From positions 49,917 to 113,916 of the forward strand of contig JAFRCK010000023.1 in assembly GCA_017404385.1 (NCBI GenBank): a DNA stretch of 64,000 nt, given 5' to 3'. Position 1 is the stretch's first letter, and each line of letters opens with the position of its first letter. The notes below the pieces were generated by a model. That model saw only the letters and a program-made list of their open reading frames with translations, was not told the origin of the DNA and ran no database searches. The translations under genes and the position numbers were made by a program. Source of the stretch: Bacilli bacterium. GTDB taxonomy: Bacteria; Bacillota_I; Bacilli_A; RF39; UBA660. Shown in pieces: positions 18,072-49,962 of this stretch.

Positions 18072-18431
18072 ATGAATAAGTTATTAAAAGTATTATTAAT
18101 TATAGTCTTACTTGTTGTTAGTGTTTATATGACAAGTAATTTATTATCTGTTTCTAAATCTTTAGATCAATGGGGTTTGACATTTACGTTTTATATAGTT
18201 CCTGTTGGAATGATAAATGGCTTATTATATGGATTAATAATTGCTTTATTGGTTGATATTTTAAAAAAGAATGATAAAAGGTTTCCAATTGTAACTTTAA
18301 TGGTTTCTACTTTTATTATAGGTTTTTTATTGATTGGTATCGTTTTAGTAAAATATAATAATAATAAAAATAAATATTCATTTGATTATAGGTATCAATC
18401 AAGTTTTATAGATATAAAAAGGAAGAGTTAA
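18072..18431 (+). CDS. Small membrane protein (about 3 TM)
   Basis: Three hydrophobic segments; GAGGTG RBS. Confidence 0.65.
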   Translation: MNKLLKVLLIIVLLVVSVYMTSNLLSVSKSLDQWGLTFTFYIVPVGMINGLLYGLIIALLVDILKKNDKRFPIVTLMVSTFIIGFLLIGIVLVKYNNNKNKYSFDYRYQSSFIDIKRKS

Positions 18432-19483
18432 ATCTCTTCCTTTATTTTTGTTTTATCTATGATTTCAGCTCGTTTACGTTTTACATAATGGAATATCATA
18501 TAATATACTAATGATACTATTACTAGGAAATAGAAACTAATATTTCTAAATACTAGTGTAGCTCCTTTAGCTATACTTGTTATTCCTAAAACTTCATTTG
18601 TTTCAATTAATAATGCTTCACTAATAATAACTCCACCAGGAACTGGAATAAAGTCAGCTGCGATTGTTAAGAATGCTTGTATTGTTACAGCATAGAATAG
18701 TGATATACCAGTTACACTAAATGATTTATATATAAAGAAGTTTACTAGTAATAAACTTAATCTTTGCATAAATATAATTCCAAATGATTTAAATAATACT
18801 TTTTTATCACTTTTTATATATCTTGATACTTCTCTATATTCTTCTAGGGAAGCTTCAACTTTCTTTTCACTATTATCATCTTTTTTCTTAATATGTAATT
18901 TCCATAAAATACTATAGCCAAAATTTGCTAATTTAACTATAAATTTTTTAGAGAATATTAATGCCATTAATAACGCTACTAACAATGATGTAATTATTAC
19001 ACCTAATAGAGTAAATCCTCTAAAAGAAGGGGTTAAATCTTGTATTTGATTAAAATAGAATATATAGCCAATTAGTACTATTAATAATAAAGCAACTTTA
19101 TATAATATTGTATTTAATATAACAACTATACTACTTACTCTATATGGTATTTTATCTTTATTCATTTCTATCATTTGAACAGGTTGACCACCAGTTGAAC
19201 TAGGAGTAATAGCACTAAAGTAAGTTTCGGTAAAAACATATCCAATTGCTTGATACCATGATATTTTATAATTTAGTTTTCTAAATATATATTTAAAATA
19301 TAGAGCTTCAAAAAATACCCATGATACAACACACAACATCGCGACTAATAAATACCATCCATTACATTTACTCATAGTTTCTTGGAATTCAGTTAATGAA
19401 TAATCCTTAAATACAAATATATACGCTAATATAAACAAAAGTATAAATACTGATGTAGATATTATTTTCTTTTTTAAATTCAT
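18428..19483 (-). CDS. Lysylphosphatidylglycerol synthase TM / flippase-like (UPF0104) protein
   Basis: Polytopic; FSAITPSSTGGQP and FIPVPGG..ISE family motifs. Confidence 0.85.
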   Translation of the reverse strand: MNLKKKIISTSVFILLFILAYIFVFKDYSLTEFQETMSKCNGWYLLVAMLCVVSWVFFEALYFKYIFRKLNYKISWYQAIGYVFTETYFSAITPSSTGGQPVQMIEMNKDKIPYRVSSIVVILNTILYKVALLLIVLIGYIFYFNQIQDLTPSFRGFTLLGVIITSLLVALLMALIFSKKFIVKLANFGYSILWKLHIKKKDDNSEKKVEASLEEYREVSRYIKSDKKVLFKSFGIIFMQRLSLLLVNFFIYKSFSVTGISLFYAVTIQAFLTIAADFIPVPGGVIISEALLIETNEVLGITSIAKGATLVFRNISFYFLVIVSLVYYMIFHYVKRKRAEIIDKTKIKEEI

Positions 19484-19617
19484 ACTCTCACCACATATCA
19501 ATTATAACACATTTTTATAAAAACTGGACCATCAAAATTTATAATTTTTATACTATAATTTGCATATTTAAATAAATTGTGATATCATACATTTCGTTTG
19601 TGAAAGAGGGTTTTTAT

Positions 19618-30559: not shown

Positions 30560-31321
30560 ATGTTTATAATAAATTTAGTAGATAAAGATGATAAAAGAAT
30601 TGAGTTGCTAAAAACTAAGTCTCAAATTGATATAGATAGATTTACAACTTGCTTTGAAGGACCAGAATATCTTTTAAGGGAATTAGGATTAGATGATACT
30701 TATAAAATTGAAGTATTAGAATATTTAAAAAAAGATGCTGAACCTAAAATACTAAATTTTACTGGTTCAAAATATAGAAACGTTATTTATAATTATAATA
30801 ATATGGATTATTTTAAAGGAATATCAAGTTTAGAAAGAAGTATTTATAAAACTTATTTTAATAATGAATTATTATTTCAAGATACTAAAAAAGATAAATA
30901 TAGTGATAAAAAGAAGGCTGAAATATATAAGATATTTGATATATTAAAATCTAATTCTAGTGATTATAGAGAAAAATTATCTAATGCAGTTTTTAACTAT
31001 TTTAAAGATTATTATTCTGCTTTTAAAAACTTTTATAAATACATTATTGAATTTTCAAAGAAAGAAAAGTTGATTTATCCTCCAGGGACACTAGAATCTA
31101 TAAATTCACTTATAATTCGTATGCAAGATAAAATATCTGGTAAAGCTAATGAAACAAATATAGATTTAAGTTTAGAAGATAATGTGGATAGTATTTTAGC
31201 AAATCCATTATCAGAAATAGATGATCAAGTAAGTGAATTAGATATGTTTTTAGATGAACATGGCATTTCTGAAGAAGAAAAGAAAAGAGTGCTAGATAAT
31301 AAAATAAAAAAAATTAATTAG
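30560..31321 (+). CDS. Hypothetical protein
   Basis: 253-aa ORF, 3 nt after the upstream stop. Confidence 0.65.
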   Translation: MFIINLVDKDDKRIELLKTKSQIDIDRFTTCFEGPEYLLRELGLDDTYKIEVLEYLKKDAEPKILNFTGSKYRNVIYNYNNMDYFKGISSLERSIYKTYFNNELLFQDTKKDKYSDKKKAEIYKIFDILKSNSSDYREKLSNAVFNYFKDYYSAFKNFYKYIIEFSKKEKLIYPPGTLESINSLIIRMQDKISGKANETNIDLSLEDNVDSILANPLSEIDDQVSELDMFLDEHGISEEEKKRVLDNKIKKIN

Positions 31322-31351: not shown

Positions 31352-32245
31352 ATGGAAAAAATTATTAAGTTTTTAGATTATTTGGATAATCAAAAGAATT
31401 ATTCTGATTATACTATATTAAATTATAAAAAAGATATTGAAGAATACTATGAATTTTTGAAAGAAAAAAAATATTCATTTGATAATATGGACTATAAAAA
31501 ATGTGTTGATTATTTATTATTTTTAGAAAAAAAAGATTTAAAGAAAACTAGTGTTTCTAGAAGACTAAGTTCTCTTAGAACTTTTTACAAGTTTTTAGTA
31601 TTAAATAATTATGTAGATTCTAATCCTTTTTTATTAGTTTCTTCACCAAAAAAAGAAAAGAGAATACCCAAATTTATTAATTATCAAGGAATAGATGAAA
31701 TTTTTAATATTCCTAATTTAAATACACCGGATGGGCAACGAGAAAGAGTAATTCTAGAAGTATTATATGGATCAGGTGTACGTGTATCAGAACTAGTTAG
31801 TATTAAAATTAAGGATATAGATTTTAATAATAGAACTATATTAATATTTGGAAAAGGTAGTAAAGAGAGATTAGTTTCTTTTGGAGAACCAGCTTTAGAT
31901 GCTATCAAAAACTATTTGGAAGATGGAAGAAAAGTATTATTAGGCGAAATAAATAGTGATTATTTAATAGTAGGTAAAGAAAAAGAAAACTTAACAACAA
32001 GAAGAATAGAACAAATTATTAATGATTTAATAAAAGAAACCAGTATAAAAATGAATATAACACCTCATATGTTTAGACATACTTTCGCAACTCATCTATT
32101 AGATCAAGGCTGTGATCTAATCGCAGTTCAAGAATTGCTAGGGCATGAATCATTATCATCTACTGAAATCTATACTCATGTATCAAATGAACATTTAAGA
32201 GAAGTATATATGAAATGTCATCCTAGAAATTTTGACAAAAAATAA
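31352..32245 (+). CDS. xerC: Tyrosine recombinase, XerC/CodV-like
   Basis: GSGVRVSEL, GKGSKER, TPHMFRHTFATHLL, LGH, TEIYTH: complete R-H-R-Y set; no cargo context. Confidence 0.88.
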   Translation: MEKIIKFLDYLDNQKNYSDYTILNYKKDIEEYYEFLKEKKYSFDNMDYKKCVDYLLFLEKKDLKKTSVSRRLSSLRTFYKFLVLNNYVDSNPFLLVSSPKKEKRIPKFINYQGIDEIFNIPNLNTPDGQRERVILEVLYGSGVRVSELVSIKIKDIDFNNRTILIFGKGSKERLVSFGEPALDAIKNYLEDGRKVLLGEINSDYLIVGKEKENLTTRRIEQIINDLIKETSIKMNITPHMFRHTFATHLLDQGCDLIAVQELLGHESLSSTEIYTHVSNEHLREVYMKCHPRNFDKK

Positions 32246-32284
32246 TTGTTACTGTATTATATTTGCTTATCAAAGGGGATTATT

Positions 32285-32995
32285 ATGGATATTATAGATA
32301 TTAGTAGAGAAAAGCTAGACTCGTTTCGTACAATAAAAAAAGATATTGTATGGGTAGATAATAATTATGTATATAAAAAAGATTTTACTTTTGAAAGAAA
32401 AAAGGATTTGTTCGAAATATTAAGAACGTTTGAAGAAACAAAAGACTGTATTTTGCCAGAGAAAAATTTATATCTTAATGGTAATCCATTTGGTTATATA
32501 ACCAAGTATGATAAAGAAAAAGATAAATTAACAAAAAGAATAATAAAAGGAGATTTATTACATAAGGAAAAACTATTAATAATTAGAGAATTAATTCGTA
32601 TAATAAAAGAAATACATAGTGTTGGTTTTACCCATGGAGATTTTCATACAGATAACATATTATATTCAAAAAATGGAGTTAAATTAATAGATTTTGATAA
32701 TTCTACTTTAAGTGGTGAATCTACTGAGATTTATCATAATGGTAAGATAAAAGCAGACATGGCTTTATTAAATATAGATATATTAAATATACTTGGTGAT
32801 AAAGTAATAACTGTTGAATCTCAGTTAATACCATTTATTAAATGTTTGGATATTAGTGAAGATTATAAATCATATTTAATCGCATCTATATCATATAAAG
32901 ATAGTGTTAAAGAAATATATCCAGATAAGTATTTAGAAGAAATAAACGGAAAGTTAGAAACACAAGTAAGAAAACTAATTAGGAGTATAAAATGA
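32285..32995 (+). CDS. Protein kinase-like (RIO/Kdo/PKL-type) protein
   Basis: HGDFHTDNIL catalytic loop and LIDFDN; short N-lobe. Confidence 0.78.
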   Translation: MDIIDISREKLDSFRTIKKDIVWVDNNYVYKKDFTFERKKDLFEILRTFEETKDCILPEKNLYLNGNPFGYITKYDKEKDKLTKRIIKGDLLHKEKLLIIRELIRIIKEIHSVGFTHGDFHTDNILYSKNGVKLIDFDNSTLSGESTEIYHNGKIKADMALLNIDILNILGDKVITVESQLIPFIKCLDISEDYKSYLIASISYKDSVKEIYPDKYLEEINGKLETQVRKLIRSIK

Positions 32996-33252
32996 TAGAT
33001 ATTTTTACAAATAATTTACCTCATATGGATTTACATGGGGAAGATAGAATAAACTCAATAATAAAAGTAGATGAGTTTATAAATGATAATATAAAATTAA
33101 GAAATAAAAAAATAGTTATTATTCATGGTATTGGAGAAGGAATTCTTAAAAAAGCAGTACATGATTATTTAAAAAAAGATAAAAGAGTATTAGATTATAA
33201 TTTAGGAATAAATAATGGTGAAACTATTGTCTCTCTTAAATTTGACAAATAA
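32992..33252 (+). CDS. Stand-alone Smr domain protein
   Basis: MDLHG, IIHGIGEGILK, NNGETIV. Confidence 0.9.
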   Translation: MIDIFTNNLPHMDLHGEDRINSIIKVDEFINDNIKLRNKKIVIIHGIGEGILKKAVHDYLKKDKRVLDYNLGINNGETIVSLKFDK

Positions 33253-33396
33253 TTATATCTATATATAATAGATGTCAATTCAAAAGGGGGACTTTTCTTA
33301 TATTTAAAATATAAAAAAATACCCAATTTATTTGACAAAATATGAGGTTTGTGTTAGTATAAAACACGTTTCATTTAAAAAGAAGGGGGACTTTTT

Positions 33397-35640
33397 ATGA
33401 AAAACTCAACTTTTATAAGGGATTTATTAGTAAAAGTATTATTAATTGTTATTTTTATATTTTTATTAATGTATTTATTCCCAATGCCAAATTTATCACC
33501 ATTTTATAGTTCTATATTTAATGATAATGTACAAACTATGAAAGATGCGGCTGAAGATTACTATACTACTGAAAGAATGCCTAAAGATGAAGGTAAATCA
33601 ACTAAGATGACTTTAAAAGAAATGGAGGAAAAGAAGTTAGTTCTTCCATTCGTAGATAAAGATAATAAATCTTGTGATAAGAATAAGTCTTATGTTGAAG
33701 TTACTAAGTTAAAAGATGAATATGAATTAAAGGTATCTTTAACTTGTGGTAAAGAATCAAATTATATTATCGAAAAGATTGGTTGTTATAATTTCTGTCC
33801 AACTGGTACTTGTACATTAGCGGATATTAAGAATCAAGAACCAGAAGCTAAACCAGTAACAACAAATACTGATAAGGATGGTAACGTTACTGTTAATGTT
33901 CCAAGTGGAAGATATGTTTATGAATATGAATATGTTAAAAATCATTACAATGAAAATTGGACATTAGGTTCATGGAGAAATACAAAAGTATCTGAAAATG
34001 ATAATGTTAAATTGAATGATACTAGAACTCAATATACAGGTCAAAAGAAAGTTACTTCAGGAACAAAATTATATGAACAAATATCATACGGATATAAAGA
34101 TAATTGGACATATGATAATGATTGGACTACAGAAGTTAAAACACAAACAGATAATTTAAAGTTATGGAAAGAAAGAACTTTATATACTGGTGATAAAAAA
34201 GTAGAAAAGAAAACTACTGAATATGAACATGTTAAATATGGATATAAAGATAACTGGACATATGATAATGATTGGACTACAGAAGTTAAAACACAAACAG
34301 ATAAATTAAAATTATGGAAAGAAAGAACTTTATATACAGGTCAAAAGAGAATAGCTAACAATACTACTGAATATAGACATGTTAAATATAAAACAACTGA
34401 AAAGTGGAATGAAACTGGATGGTCTACTAAAAAAAGAACAGAAACAACTGATACTAAGTTAGTTGGAACAAGATATACAGTTTCTAAGGATATAACTACT
34501 ACAACTAATACATGTACTGGTTATACTACTGATTCTAATTGGTATACAAGTAAACCAGCTGATACTAGTTCAAGAAAATATGATTCAACTCCAGTTAATA
34601 GTAAAACTGAAAGTGGAGATTGGAAGTTAATAGATGGATCATATGCATCTAGATATAGTATGTCAACATATGTTGGTAATAGATGGTATGAATTCTTATA
34701 TTCTCAAATGGAAACTTGTACTGTTGCTTGTAATGGTCAATCTAGAATAAGAATGTATTATTATAGAGTTTATGAAAAAGGTGCAGGTAAAACATTATAT
34801 CAATATAGATATTGTACACCTAAGTCAAGTTCTACAACTAAAACAGATACACAAGTTGTAACTGATTTAAAGACTTGGCAAGATAAAGGTTATAAGTTAA
34901 TTAAGACTGAATATAACTATAAAGTAAGAACAGTTACTAAAGAAGCAATAGGTGATATATGGACAAACAGTAAAACTAGTCCAAGTGGATATGAGTATAC
35001 TGGTGAAACTAGAACAAAGACTACATATACTTATGAACAATTAAATAAATGGGTAACTAATAAAGATTTATTAGGAGAATATACATATAATATTAATACA
35101 ACTAAACAATATAAATATGCATATAATAACCCAACAAGATATATAGAAGACACTAAATGGACAAATAGTAAAACTAGTCCAAGTGGATATGTATATACTG
35201 GTAATAGTAAGACTACTACTACTGTATCATTTGAACCATTAAATAAGTGGGTTACAAGTACTAGTGAATTAGGAGAATATACTTATAACACTAAAACAAC
35301 AAAACAATATAAGTATAAATATAATAATCCTGAAAAGTATGTTAAAGATACTATCTGGACTACAGAAAATGTAGCAAGACAAGGATATGAATTAACTGGT
35401 AGAACTAAAGATACTTCTAAGACTACTTACATAGATTTAGGTATCTGGGTAAATAGTAAAAGTGAACTTGGTGAATATACTTATAATGTTCAATCAAGAA
35501 CTCAATATAGATATAGATATAGAGAAGTTACAAATAATAAAGAATATAAATGGGCAACTAAGAATCCAGGTGATGGTTGGGAACCAACTGGTAATTCAAG
35601 AAAAAAATATATAGCTGATACAGCTAATAGACAAAAATAA
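33397..35640 (+). CDS. Large pilin-like surface protein with nested repeat stalk
   Basis: N-terminal TM and Cys-containing head, then W/Y/T/K-rich repeats of about 50 aa and about 66 aa. Confidence 0.8.
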   Translation: MKNSTFIRDLLVKVLLIVIFIFLLMYLFPMPNLSPFYSSIFNDNVQTMKDAAEDYYTTERMPKDEGKSTKMTLKEMEEKKLVLPFVDKDNKSCDKNKSYVEVTKLKDEYELKVSLTCGKESNYIIEKIGCYNFCPTGTCTLADIKNQEPEAKPVTTNTDKDGNVTVNVPSGRYVYEYEYVKNHYNENWTLGSWRNTKVSENDNVKLNDTRTQYTGQKKVTSGTKLYEQISYGYKDNWTYDNDWTTEVKTQTDNLKLWKERTLYTGDKKVEKKTTEYEHVKYGYKDNWTYDNDWTTEVKTQTDKLKLWKERTLYTGQKRIANNTTEYRHVKYKTTEKWNETGWSTKKRTETTDTKLVGTRYTVSKDITTTTNTCTGYTTDSNWYTSKPADTSSRKYDSTPVNSKTESGDWKLIDGSYASRYSMSTYVGNRWYEFLYSQMETCTVACNGQSRIRMYYYRVYEKGAGKTLYQYRYCTPKSSSTTKTDTQVVTDLKTWQDKGYKLIKTEYNYKVRTVTKEAIGDIWTNSKTSPSGYEYTGETRTKTTYTYEQLNKWVTNKDLLGEYTYNINTTKQYKYAYNNPTRYIEDTKWTNSKTSPSGYVYTGNSKTTTTVSFEPLNKWVTSTSELGEYTYNTKTTKQYKYKYNNPEKYVKDTIWTTENVARQGYELTGRTKDTSKTTYIDLGIWVNSKSELGEYTYNVQSRTQYRYRYREVTNNKEYKWATKNPGDGWEPTGNSRKKYIADTANRQK
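33958..34470 (+). repeat. Intragenic tandem repeat, 147-150 nt period (4 units; units 2 and 3 nearly identical)
   Basis: GATATAAAGATAA(T/C)TGGACATATGATAATGATTGG at 34091 and 34241; anchor Trp codons at 33958, 34105, 34255, 34405. Confidence 0.9.
34960..35605 (+). repeat. Intragenic tandem repeat, 195-198 nt period
   Basis: WTNSKTSPSGY at 34960 and 35158; related WTTE at 35356 and WATK at 35551; LGEYTYN occurs three times. Confidence 0.88.
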
Positions 35641-35699
35641 GCGAAAATTATTCGCTTATTTTTTTTCTTGTGTTAAAATGAGTTAAAGGAGGTATTAAT

Positions 35700-37862
35700 A
35701 TGACAATTGATGTTTTAGTTGAAATAAATATAAATAAGAAAGATAAAACTTTCTCTTATAATGTTCCTGAGACTATGATTAATGAAATATATTTAGGTAA
35801 AAGAGTATTAGTACCTTTTGGTAAACAAACTTTAGAAGGCTTTATATTAGGTATACATGATAAACAAGATACTGATTTAAAAGATATAATTAAAGTAATA
35901 GATAAAGACTCTATTTTAAATAAAGAATTATTGGAACTTGGAAAACGAATTAGTGAAGATAGTGTTACAAACTTAGTGTCTGTTTATCAATCTATGCTAC
36001 CTAAAGGTTATAAAGCATCTATTAAAAATACTGTTAAAGAAAAAACAGTTTTATATGTGAAATTAAATAATATAAATAATGTAAAAGAATATTTAACTAA
36101 AACAAAATCTAAGAATCAAATAGAAGTATTAAATAAACTATTAATAAATGATTTACCATTAAGAGATTTAAATACAAGTTCAGTTAATACTTTGGTAGAA
36201 AAAGGATTAGTTACTAAATACAGTAAAGAAGAATATAGACTTAATAATGAAAGTGTGGATAAGGTTGTTACAAAGTTAAATACTGATCAAGAAAATGCTT
36301 ATAATAAGATAATTAATAGTGATAAAGATGTAATTTTATTAAATGGAGTAACTGGTAGTGGTAAAACAGAAATATATATGTCTTTAATAGATAAAGTTCT
36401 TAGTGAAGGAAAAGAAGCAATAGTATTAGTGCCTGAAATTAGTTTGACACCTCAAATAATACAAAGATTTAGATCTCATTTTAAAGAAGAAATAGCTGTT
36501 TTACATAGTGCATTATCTGATGGTGAAAGATATGATGAATATAGAAAGATTATCAGAAAAGAAGTTAAAATAGTTATAGGAGCAAGATCTGCTATTTTCG
36601 CACCATTTACTAATATAGGAATAATAATTATAGATGAAGAACATTCTAATACATATAAACAAGATCATAATCCTAGATATAATGCTATAGAAGTAGCCTT
36701 TTTAAGAGGAAAAACATATAATGCTAAAGTAGTACTAGGTTCAGCAACACCAACAATAGAAAGTTATGCAAGAGCTAAAAAGGGGTATTATGAGCTAGTA
36801 GAATTAAAAACAAGAGCAAATAATGCAGTACTTCCATTAGTTAATATAATAGATATGACTAAAGAAATTAGAAAAGGTAATAAGATGTTTTCTAAAGAAT
36901 TATTATTATCTATAGAAGATAGATTAAATAAACAAGAACAAATATTATTATTAATTAATAAAAGAGGTTATTCTAATTATTTGATGTGTGAATTTTGTGG
37001 AAGTGTAAGAAAATGTCCTAATTGTGATATTACTCTTACTTATCATAAAACAAGTGATATGAATAGATGTCATTATTGTGGTTATGCAGAGAATAATACT
37101 AAAATATGTTCTGATTGTAAAAAGGATAGTTTAAGACAAATGGGATATGGTACTGAAAAAGTAGAAGAGGAATTGATAAAATTATTTCCAAATATAAGAA
37201 CACTTAGAATGGATATCGATACAACTACTAAAAAAGGATCTCATGAAGAAATAATAAAATCATTTATGAATCATGAAGCAGATGCTTTAATTGGTACACA
37301 AATGATAGCTAAAGGTCTTGATTTTCCATTAGTAACATTAGTAGGAGTAATAAACGCTGATACTATACTTAATTTACCTGATTTTAGATCGTGTGAAAGA
37401 ACTTATGATTTACTTTCTCAAGTATCAGGTAGAGCTGGCAGAAGTTCATTACCAGGGAAAGTAATTATACAAACATATAATCCAGATAATTATTCTATAA
37501 AATTATCTAAAACTCATAATTATGAAGAATTCTATAATGAAGAAATAAAAATAAGAAAGAAATTATATTATCCTCCATATTCATTTATTGCATTAATAAA
37601 GATAGGTGGTAAAGATTTTAAAGAAACTATTAATGAATCAAATAAAATAGGTGATTATTTAAGAAATAAAGTTGAAAAAGAAATAGTATTAGGACCATCA
37701 GTAGGATCAGTATCTAGAATTAATAATATATACTACTTTGAAATAATTATTAAATATAGGGATAAACAAAAGATTATAGATCTATTAAATGAAATAAAAT
37801 CATTAACTGAAAATAATAGAAAAATAAAAGTAGAATTTGACATAAATCCTAATAGTTTATAA
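35700..37862 (+). CDS. priA: Primosomal protein N'
   Basis: GVTGSGKTE, VPEISLTPQ, DEEH, two Cys-rich zinc sites, GTQMIAKGLDF, QVSGRAGR. Confidence 0.98.
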   Translation: MTIDVLVEININKKDKTFSYNVPETMINEIYLGKRVLVPFGKQTLEGFILGIHDKQDTDLKDIIKVIDKDSILNKELLELGKRISEDSVTNLVSVYQSMLPKGYKASIKNTVKEKTVLYVKLNNINNVKEYLTKTKSKNQIEVLNKLLINDLPLRDLNTSSVNTLVEKGLVTKYSKEEYRLNNESVDKVVTKLNTDQENAYNKIINSDKDVILLNGVTGSGKTEIYMSLIDKVLSEGKEAIVLVPEISLTPQIIQRFRSHFKEEIAVLHSALSDGERYDEYRKIIRKEVKIVIGARSAIFAPFTNIGIIIIDEEHSNTYKQDHNPRYNAIEVAFLRGKTYNAKVVLGSATPTIESYARAKKGYYELVELKTRANNAVLPLVNIIDMTKEIRKGNKMFSKELLLSIEDRLNKQEQILLLINKRGYSNYLMCEFCGSVRKCPNCDITLTYHKTSDMNRCHYCGYAENNTKICSDCKKDSLRQMGYGTEKVEEELIKLFPNIRTLRMDIDTTTKKGSHEEIIKSFMNHEADALIGTQMIAKGLDFPLVTLVGVINADTILNLPDFRSCERTYDLLSQVSGRAGRSSLPGKVIIQTYNPDNYSIKLSKTHNYEEFYNEEIKIRKKLYYPPYSFIALIKIGGKDFKETINESNKIGDYLRNKVEKEIVLGPSVGSVSRINNIYYFEIIIKYRDKQKIIDLLNEIKSLTENNRKIKVEFDINPNSL

Positions 37863-38713
37863 ATTAAGACTTGCTTTAGTAGTATTATTTCTATATAATT
37901 TTAATAGGAGGTATAGTATGAGCGAAACAAAAGATAAATATTATCTTAGAGAAGAGTTTAAAAATGATTATTTAAATGAAGATAGGATATTTTTTCACTC
38001 GGGTTATGATGATCATGATCAAATAGGCAATTTTAATGATATTGAAGAAAATGAATTTATAGGAATTCTTGTTAATCCAAAAAGTTTTGGTATGATTATC
38101 CCAAAAGTTTTAGAGGGAGATCTTTTTATGATGTATGAACCAGAAGATTCTTCAAGGAGTTTTCCAGATTCAATAAATACAGCTTTGAAAAGTTTGGTTG
38201 TTGATGATTCACTAGGGATTCCATTAATTGTAAAAAAAATAAGAGACAATAAAGTTCAAGAAATTTTATCGGGAGAAGAATTTTTAATTAGAACTACTGG
38301 TCCTGATTCTATATATGGTGATATAGATTGGACTGAACTTCCTGAAAAAGAAATATCTTTTCAAAATGAAGTATATAGAACAATAAAGGATAATAATGCA
38401 TATGTTGATTGTATGTGTTCAGAGCATAGATGGGGATATGTTAAAATAGATGATTATTTTAAAAGTCTATATGCGGATACAACATTAGAAAAAAAAGAAG
38501 ACTTAGTAACAGTATTAAAAGCAATAAAGGATGTATCTAAAAAGAAATTTGATGAAGAAGAAAAGAAAGCACTAGATAGATTACATAAAGTTGCTGAGGT
38601 TGATAACTTATTATATGATGAAAAAAAATCAGGTAAGAAAAATATGTAAAATCATTAATTAAAATAATAAAAAGTTAAAAGTAGAATTTGACATAAAACC
38701 TAATAATTTTTAG
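37795..38713 (+). repeat. Imperfect direct repeat of about 68 bp (priA 3' end at 37795-37862; second copy at 38647-38713) flanking an orphan gene
   Basis: Shared core TAAAAGTAGAATTTGACATAAA; 9 differences in 68 positions by manual alignment. Confidence 0.85.
37918..38649 (+). CDS. Hypothetical acidic protein (inserted orphan)
   Basis: 243 aa, TTGCTT/TATAAT promoter, AGGAGG RBS. Confidence 0.75.
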   Translation: MSETKDKYYLREEFKNDYLNEDRIFFHSGYDDHDQIGNFNDIEENEFIGILVNPKSFGMIIPKVLEGDLFMMYEPEDSSRSFPDSINTALKSLVVDDSLGIPLIVKKIRDNKVQEILSGEEFLIRTTGPDSIYGDIDWTELPEKEISFQNEVYRTIKDNNAYVDCMCSEHRWGYVKIDDYFKSLYADTTLEKKEDLVTVLKAIKDVSKKKFDEEEKKALDRLHKVAEVDNLLYDEKKSGKKNM

Positions 38714-49905: not shown

Positions 49906-49962
49906 AAAAATAAGTCTATTGACTTATTTTTTTGGTGATGTTATATTATATTTGAAGGAGGA

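Follow-up and report, generated by a model that had tools for sequence, protein, structure and literature searches.

In antigen I/II proteins the A and P repeat regions flank a V head and associate into a stalk, in the part of the published account cited here (PMC3178794). Modular pilins combine a small N-terminal pilin module, a linker and a large functional module, and are described as widespread in the portion of PMC8179133 we draw on. Periscope proteins, in the sections of PMC9704523 used here, carry highly identical, individually folding tandem domains in one array. Here we describe a protein that shares features with all three. It is encoded in a stretch of 64,000 nucleotides (nt) from a Bacilli bacterium (the window; positions 49,917 to 113,916 of the forward strand of contig JAFRCK010000023.1, GenBank assembly GCA_017404385.1), where a single open reading frame (ORF) at 33397..35640 (+) specifies 747 amino acids (aa); we refer to the product as the stalk protein. 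We consider it probable that this is a membrane-anchored stalk whose chain runs out and back, with the units of an outbound (A) and a return (B) repeat array pairing antiparallel and one to one. It belongs to an unannotated family of unusual architecture, which we would class with the fibrillar surface proteins, as one whose pilin-like anchor carries a hairpin stalk.

In principle, antigen I/II is the closest analogue. In the accounts of SpaP, SspB and AspA cited here, as in the stalk protein, two different repeat regions form a stalk that projects a head from the cell. The earlier note on this DNA, made from the letters by themselves, had not recognised the architecture from described adhesins; no family match was indeed found, but antigen I/II already builds an out-and-back stalk. 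As described in those accounts, the antigen I/II stalk consists of an Ala-rich alpha helix and a Pro-rich polyproline helix with a C-terminal wall anchor and a free N terminus, whereas the stalk protein is predicted to have two limbs of Tyr/Trp/Thr-rich beta strands, is anchored by a pilin-like helix at its N terminus and has a free C terminus. None of the antigen I/II Pfam families matched the stalk protein, which is also unrelated to them in sequence and has no C-terminal sorting signal. With the modular pilins, of which the cited portion of the literature names Streptococcus sanguinis PilB and PilC, Thermus ComZ and CofB of enterotoxigenic Escherichia coli, it shares a pilin module with a grafted module. 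It differs from them in having Ser rather than Gly/Ala at the end of the leader, in lacking an N_methyl match and in belonging to a genus where no assembly ATPase turned up; what is grafted on is a two-array hairpin stalk and not a known domain. In Periscope proteins (single-chain surface proteins such as SasG, Aap, Rib and Sgo_0707, as far as the cited parts of PMC9704523 and PMC8201768 describe them) gain and loss of repeats changes stalk length between close strains. Repeat number also varies between close relatives of the stalk protein, as seen in short-read metagenome assemblies. Here, however, the module is split over two arrays 150-400 aa apart, a change of length takes two matched events, nucleotide identity between neighbouring core units is 87% in A and 75% in B, and the units appear partner-dependent in structure models.

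The stalk protein comprises, in order, an N-terminal membrane helix, a head with five Cys, the A array, a Cys-bearing middle and the B array. The stalk itself runs through a first-type A unit, two core A units, a last-type A unit, the tip, B0, two core B units, a last-type B unit and a terminal B piece, laid out in the window as follows.

33397..35640 (+): coding sequence of the stalk protein, stop codon included; an ORF with 189 homologues at E<=0.001
33397..33480 (+): aa 1-28, polar leader MKNS, T-F-I-R-D and hydrophobic helix; AlphaFold2 predicts helix 4-27, and R8 and D9 are invariant
33487..33801 (+): aa 31-135, head judged pilin-like from fold matches, helix 34-55 and a beta sheet; its five Cys are conserved
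33802..33906 (+): aa 136-170, linker modelled at low confidence, with a predicted local distance difference test score (pLDDT) <50 at 129-158 and 160-170
33907..34071 (+): aa 171-225, unit A1 (first-type) with the YVYEYEY strand that opens the repeat region
34072..34371 (+): aa 226-325, the two A core units (A2, A3), 50 aa each, 87% nucleotide identity
34372..34521 (+): aa 326-375, unit A4 (last-type), ending in C373
34522..34860 (+): aa 376-488, unique tip with C441-x3-C445 and C473; no fold or family match
34861..34959 (+): aa 489-521, B0, a degenerate short B-like unit; one subfamily has both it and the last A unit shortened
34960..35355 (+): aa 522-653, the two B core units (B1, B2), 66 aa each, 75% nucleotide identity
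35356..35550 (+): aa 654-718, unit B3 (last-type), containing YRYRY
35551..35637 (+): aa 719-747, C-terminal partial B unit

The layout proposed in the earlier note is confirmed, and all its positions are correct. The four outbound units of 49-50 aa are anchored by W188, W237, W287 and W337, exactly as placed (spacing 49/50/50 aa). The anchors of the 65-66 aa return units were also right (W522, W588, W654 and W719; spacing 66/66/65 aa), but the fourth of these units proved to be only a 29-aa C-terminal piece. The N-terminal transmembrane helix with a Cys-containing head, the unique middle with nested Cys (C373, C441-TVA-C445 and C473, in addition to the five of the head), and the opening of the repeat region by YEYEY (within YVYEYEY, aa 174-180) and its closing by YRYRY (aa 702-706) were all found as noted; of the neighbouring core units, A2/A3 are 87% and B1/B2 75% identical in nucleotides. 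Tandem Repeats Finder detected a 150-nt period in the A array (34086-34389, 89% matches, score 496) and a 198-nt period in the B array (34959-35327, 80% matches, score 496). In both arrays the units at the ends are unlike the inner core units, which are 0.5-0.8 identical to one another. The repeats are not a product of chance, since every one of the 120 listed homologues contains these units too. Aliphatic residues (I/L/V/M/A) make up 12.7% and 13.9% of the two arrays, both of which contain 31-32% Thr/Ser/Asn and 14-15% aromatic residues (Tyr/Trp-rich), a composition that fits thin beta ribbons better than globular domains.

Support for a coupling of the two arrays is provided by the numbers of their units. 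A word-indexed search gave 189 homologues at E<=0.001, and the best 120 together with the query (121 rows) were used for counting; among the matches listed, the closest named homologues were all proteins of 'Bacilli bacterium' metagenome-assembled genomes. Homologue lengths fall into classes ~116 aa apart, which equals 50 + 66. Array spans were measured with hidden Markov model (HMM) anchors, spans and counts from regular expressions or motif anchors being unreliable (failed or noisy). Uncorrected HMM counts of (A,B) units were (3,2) in 30 rows, (4,3) in 65 and (5,4) in 11, and the relation A = B+1 held in 106/121. Two corrections were made by hand: in an 8-row subfamily the alignment reveals an additional last A unit without its Trp loop (~25 aa) together with a B0 ~10 aa shorter, and in P0021 one A unit is split by an insert. 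After these corrections A = B+1 in 114/121 rows. On a tree of the 121 rows built by a quick method from head and middle only, with the repeats left out, the minimum number of changes was 21 for A, 22 for B and 25 for the joint state, and only 6 for A-B. At the 3-to-4 boundary there were 11 phylogenetically independent pairs, among which B on average followed A in 9.1, moved against it in 0.1 and did not change in 1.8 (median p 0.004), and at the 4-to-5 boundary the change went the same way in 5.7 of 6 independent pairs (p 0.03). As metagenome assemblers can collapse repeats, we ran the same tests again with only those 70 rows that represent a 90% cluster of two or more member sequences. Here 67/70 conformed, with 12 changes in A, 13 in B, 14 in the joint state and 3 in A-B, and with same-way pairs of 5/6 and ~5/5 at the two boundaries. 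When rows were weighted by member sequences, 1109/1119 conformed to A = B+1, as did 10/10 species-representative genomes with the stalk protein (in one of the ten the fourth B unit is cut by the locus end), with variation within each of two genera. The 1:1 co-variation of outbound and return copy numbers suggested in the earlier note is thus upheld, in corrected and raw counts alike and over many independent changes.

Close relatives indicate how such changes may arise. P0015 and P0028 are identical at 629/630 residues, and the sole gaps between them are of 50 aa and 66 aa, that is, one A and one B unit. Equivalent differences separate P0091 from P0107 (622/624 match; gaps of 50 aa and 65 aa) and P0086 from P0100 (614/630 match; gaps of 50 aa and 66 aa). 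P0101, a (4,2) form, has the B deletion junction in common with P0100 (3,2) and does not have the A deletion; to judge from the alignment it looks like an intermediate, as a stepwise path predicts. We also noted P0116 (646 aa, singleton cluster), which is a (2,3) form: relative to the 97%-identical P0100 (3,2) it is short of an A unit and has gained a B unit. Either its assembly is chimeric or the strong mismatch is real.

Structure prediction also coupled the arrays. AlphaFold2, run on the window protein with 61 aligned sequences, returned a mean pLDDT of 75.8 and a predicted template-modelling score (pTM) of 0.28, with very long strands through both arrays (e.g. 254-284, 304-343, 500-523 and 696-720) and a pLDDT of 75-89 in most stalk blocks. 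When the A array (171-375) and the B array (489-747) were submitted to a complex predictor as separate chains, the interaction prediction score from aligned errors (ipSAE) was 0.57, 0.57 and 0.55, compared with 0.03 for the best of three controls; contact agreement between the runs was at least 97% and partner pLDDT at least 84. The mark applied to this score is reached by 116/157 solved complexes and 2/215 mismatched pairs, and scores <=0.60 that reach it include 18/157 solved complexes and both passing mismatches; since we supplied our own alignment to the predictor, these calibration counts hold only roughly. In that job the A array reached a pLDDT of 85 beside the B array but 36 or 51 when its partner was unrelated, and the B array reached 85 beside the A array but 41 beside an unrelated chain. 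Further support comes from P0085 (4 A, 2 B), which is without the B2/B3 junction piece of its 94%-identical sister P0046. In its AlphaFold2 model the pLDDT drops below 50 at 216-246 and 252-268, which corresponds to unit A2 (223-271). The 10-residue blocks across 211-270 score 51 42 40 49 44 43, with 80-91 in the rest of the stalk, and the corresponding blocks of the window protein score 89 86 80 85 85 85 at an alignment depth equal to that of P0085. P0085 is one B unit short and its A2 is modelled as unstructured, so the loss of a B unit removes the predicted structure of one particular A unit, across the tip from it. In two structure predictors, then, each array depends on the other for its modelled fold. 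The earlier note had looked to a predicted structure for antiparallel contacts between outbound and return units; the mutual dependence of the arrays and the orphaned A2 of P0085 go in that direction. Its proposal that the chain runs out and back, each module being built from an outbound and a return half, is supported by the copy numbers, the co-folding and the mismatch model together.

A register in which A_i faces B_(n-i) is suggested, though not proven, because the positions of insertions and deletions and the unit that loses confidence point there. The orphan unit A2 of P0085 is the expected antiparallel partner of B2, and in one subfamily of the alignment the two units next to the tip, the last A unit and B0, are both shortened. 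A scan for the missing unit in 20 related pairs decided six (margin >=0.03 in both arrays), and five of the six fit this register. The tip has two or four Cys in 116/121 rows (none in 4 rows, five in 1). C373 and C473 are gained or lost together, but once on the tree, and are uninformative as a test of co-variation. Cross-array disulfides, sought as a means of fixing the register, did not emerge: extra Cys in 12 proteins form local pairs within the loop of one unit, in the A array in 11 proteins and in unit B3 in P0089. In the Trp loops of A units such Cys either form a C-x3-4-C motif or sit on both sides of an insert of 15-20 aa, and are always paired (P0005, P0006, P0008, P0011, P0014, P0017, P0020, P0021, P0023, P0025 and P0029). 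To judge from these patterns, the Trp loops of A units are insertion sites and probably hold local disulfides.

In the out-and-back model, the pilin-like helix and the small Cys-stapled head would hold the protein in the membrane, and after a flexible linker the chain would run outward through the 50-aa A units to a Cys-containing tip of ~110 aa at the far end, then return through the 66-aa B units to leave the C terminus back at the base. Each A unit would lie antiparallel with one B unit, forming one module from two distant pieces of sequence, and the acidic-aromatic YEYEY strand and the basic-aromatic YRYRY strand would come to lie side by side. The number of core units per array, m, is 1, 2 or 3 among relatives (m = 2 in the window protein). 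With the module split over both arrays, the stalk would change length by whole modules, one unit per array; unmatched forms would bulge out the unpaired unit, giving a two-step, compensated route through a tolerated intermediate. Straight strands of 31-40 residues would give ~10 nm per module as a rough estimate. The exact register, pairing within rather than between molecules, and the disulfides are what we infer from these observations. By analogy with fibrillar adhesins, the tip may be a binding head that the stalk holds away from the cell at a distance that can be tuned. If the pairing is true, the family would offer a natural case of structural coupling between two separated repeat arrays that is visible in copy-number statistics, and would make it testable how repeat proteins change length when the module is not encoded in one piece. 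It would also supply an all-beta counterpart to the antigen I/II stalk and add an unannotated ectodomain to the pilin-like surface proteins that a family of genome-reduced gut Bacilli encodes at a conserved place between smr and priA.

Database searches gave few leads to the stalk. Pfam returned two chance-level matches only (E 0.2 and 0.37), NCBIfam and PHROGs none, and in a profile search PDB sequences matched with E 0.49 at best. Foldseek with the whole model found 0 matches in the PDB at E<=0.001. Two Foldseek matches <0.001 in BFVD, with a template-modelling score of 0.05 and a root-mean-square deviation (rmsd) >54 Å, were read as likeness of long strands only. For the tip region the ESM Atlas gave no usable named match, and fold matches to aa 406-467 (Z <=4.6) were to unrelated small beta proteins and were set aside. 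A non-exhaustive search of the literature found analogues and no description of the family.

Several observations weigh against the paired, out-and-back stalk. The pairing of A with B is deduced from copy numbers and model confidence rather than from observed contacts; the pTM is 0.28-0.29 in both AlphaFold2 monomer models, and the complex prediction for the two arrays carries a verdict of 'weak support'. The stalk fold matches no solved structure against which the models could be cross-checked. The proposed function is read from the architecture, and the tip has no recognisable fold. In the missing-unit scan, the pair P0086/P0098 contradicts the antiparallel register and 14/20 pairs are ambiguous. 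Seven of the 121 rows are unmatched, (4,2) in four and (3,3), (4,4) and (2,3) in one each, and matching is therefore not obligatory. All relatives come from metagenome assemblies, and short-read assembly can collapse tandem repeats; A2/A3 share an exact run of 50 nt and B1/B2 one of 25 nt, and in the A array Logan contigs are interrupted at that 50-nt run. Singleton clusters account for several of the near-identical pairs that differ in copy number, and some of these singleton variants could be assembly errors. Finally, at most 0.06 of the sampled words were present in RNA runs, which lend no support for expression. Logan contigs from 4 runs of 4 studies showed no in-register skips of 150 or 198 nt, and the four contig joints listed were rejected as being of low depth, with short sides and an often spurious type; the contigs thus give no evidence either way on mixtures of copy number within a sample.

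The nature of the anchor bears on the first of the alternatives, that the protein is a true minor type IV pilin, cleaved by the prepilin peptidase and displaying the stalk from the end of a pilus or competence pseudopilus. A pilin fold has a long alpha-1 helix packed against an antiparallel sheet. In a fold search against 48,161 representative PDB chains, where Z <8 may reflect only a common arrangement, the six best matches were all pilins and all on residues 31-150, with modest Z of 6.2-5.1 over 74-88 residues: EpsI (2ret_A; Z 6.2, rmsd 3.8 Å, 79 aa), GspI (3ci0_I; Z 5.7), XcpV (5bw0_B; Z 5.5), S. sanguinis PilA (7o5y_B; Z 5.3) and PilB (7b7p_A; Z 5.1), and a Thermus competence pilin (5g2f_A; Z 5.1). 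ComZ (6qvi_A) also matches the head, with Z 4.2. The best of these matches, the type II secretion minor pseudopilins GspI, EpsI and XcpV, are proteins of ~120 aa from Gram-negative secretion with no C-terminal extension, and their Z of 5-6 is below the clear level. The description 'pilin-like' in the earlier note is supported by the fold of the head (Z 5-6) only; the canonical prepilin Gly is absent.

The N-terminal module of ~150 aa occurs in 855 proteins (E<=0.001) with many different C-terminal regions and in 192/301 genomes of the order (E<=1e-20); A and B units are found in just 7/149 of the cluster representatives that share it. Among 41 other module members scanned, 33 were without a Pfam domain and the rest carried domains of extracellular types (Flg_new, cEGF, HYR, EGF_MSP1 and CC). 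At -1, prepilin peptidases generally accept few residues other than Gly. A class III signal peptide is a hydrophilic leader ending in Gly (or Ala), as given in the cited portion of PMC8179133. N-termini of the wider family resemble such a signal: [KR]-G is followed by F/L/I and a run of ~21 hydrophobic residues, with position +5 acidic. Of the anchored N-termini (48 anchorable of 149), 21/48 have the Gly and 27/48 the Asp/Glu. Among the 101 matched N-termini of the stalk subfamily (121 rows), 79 have Ser at -1, 12 have Thr and 6 have Gly. The window protein has the leader M-K-N-S before T-F-I-R-D, with Ser in place of the Gly of a class III signal; it does have the acidic +5 residue and the stretch of ~21 hydrophobic residues, D9 being invariant and the hydrophobic tract extending to P29. 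N_methyl (PF07963 / IPR012902) gave no match to the stalk protein at E<=1. The sole N_methyl-like match in the genome (18.4 bits, below the cut-off) is a 357-aa polytopic membrane protein at window 18428-19501 (-), which we take as spurious.

The source genome encodes an A24 prepilin peptidase (PF01478, 59.6 bits), full-length and outside the window (genome contig C7:244583-244945 (-), locus L002 1381-2187). Its ORF has a GGGD motif and an N-terminal Cys cluster, which we take to be functional motifs of the A24 family, and such a peptidase is present in 13/14 genomes of the genus. The T2SSE ATPase was found above cut-off in 0/14 genomes of the genus, whereas 11/11 genomes tested from the family's other genera have it; genus g77, where the stalk protein also occurs, has the ATPase in 3/4 genomes tested. 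The T2SSF platform protein was not found in the source genome (93.5% complete), and a loose motif scan of all its ORFs revealed no other pilin-like N-terminus. With the peptidase kept, no ATPase and no other pilin-like N-terminus, the peptidase appears orphan and the stalk protein its only candidate client. A true minor pilin is thus unlikely: the pilin-like fold, the [KR]-G signal of the wider family, the peptidase in the genus, the ATPase in g77 and the wide occurrence of modular pilins (in the cited portion of PMC8179133) speak for it, but no T2SSE above cut-off was found in the genus where other genera have it, no T2SSF was found in the source genome, there is no N_methyl match, Ser vastly outnumbers Gly at -1, and the gene lies between smr and priA and not in a pilus operon. 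An orphan prepilin peptidase beside a lone pilin-like protein bears on the roles of pilin modules after loss of the pilus machinery. Returning to the out-and-back stalk, it is possible, though we lean slightly to the doubtful side, that the protein represents a new length-adjustable fibril whose split modules zip as a beta hairpin, whose length changes through compensated double events only, and whose pilin module, the sole remaining client of the orphan peptidase, has been repurposed to serve by itself as membrane anchor.

Pairing of A with B between chains, in a dimer or higher oligomer forming a fibre as in phage tail fibres, would explain the copy-number matching and the two-chain co-folding equally well, and faint structural matches to fibrous and to long-hairpin proteins are in keeping with it. 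We nevertheless give it a low likelihood: both AlphaFold2 monomer models are confident in the stalk without a second copy (oligomers were not modelled), and the joint shortening of the last A unit and B0 beside the tip is what a hairpin closed at the tip would show.

It is similarly improbable that the arrays are independent tandem small domains whose counts track each other through selection on total length or through equal proneness to slippage. The seven unmatched rows, the pTM of 0.28 and a complex score of 0.57 in the weak band are in line with such domains. Against them, A-B changes 6 times on the tree compared with more than 20 times each for A and B, each array loses model confidence without the other, and one B unit less takes the confidence from one specific A unit at unchanged alignment depth; a composition with few aliphatics that is rich in Thr/Ser/Asn and Tyr/Trp is atypical of self-contained domains.

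That the matched differences reflect collapse of both arrays in short-read assembly is very improbable, for although the Logan contigs break at the 50-nt repeat, many deviant or near-identical variant rows are singletons and short reads resolve repeats poorly (PMC9704523, in the part cited), the deep, diverged (3,2) and (5,4) clades are uniform over many independent assemblies and cannot be explained by assembly error, collapse cannot produce (5,4) and would, if independent, mostly yield unmatched forms, 67/70 rows conform without singletons over at least 12 changes, and contigs from two other studies (X5 record 7 and X7 record 16) span the B array with 0 gaps.

The stalk protein comes from a ruminant-gut member of the Bacilli that is uncultured and has a reduced, low-GC genome. 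The source genome has ~25% G+C, 1.30 Mb and 43 contigs, with the stalk gene in single copy, and runs containing the DNA come from sheep, bovine, goat and unspecified gut metagenomes. The gene is flanked by smr and priA in 8/8 loci that reach far enough, from three genera, and smr is likewise upstream in 5 more distant loci. The order xerC-like, kinase-like, smr, pilin-like surface protein and priA is kept across the three genera (window 31352-37862). In more distant genera smr is upstream and the C-terminal region of the surface protein is entirely different. The position next to smr is kept while the C-terminal regions differ, indicating a fixed locus with a variable, or hypervariable, ectodomain. 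Around the stalk gene we identified the following candidate signals.

33242..33269 (+): promoter-like site TTGACA-16-TATAAT, 12/12 consensus match
33332-33360 (+): second promoter-like site, a consensus match with an extended -10
33382..33390 (+): ribosome-binding site GAAGGGGGA, 6 nt 5' of the ATG, read from the sequence and called strong
35633..35673 (+): terminator-like hairpin and T run overlapping the stop codon (2 found vs 0.2 expected)

Promoter-like sites in the region numbered 22, compared with 20.7 expected from shuffles, and are consensus matches only. Two further ORFs near the locus, 37918-38649 (+) of 243 aa and 30560-31321 (+) of 253 aa, have no Pfam family above threshold. The kinase-like ORF, of 249 aa at window 32246-32995 (+), has kinase- and APH-like matches called sub-threshold (Pkinase 26.7 bits, cut-off 31.7; APH 25.9 vs 23.2); it adjoins the stop of the xerC-like gene, overlaps the smr start by 4 nt and is just 34% identical to its counterpart in a relative of the same genus. 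Within the 144-nt leader of the stalk gene, GGGGGACTTTT following an A-rich run occurs in two copies, at window 33283-33297 and 33383-33396. The first copy has no ATG behind it, and the second is the ribosome-binding site of the stalk gene.

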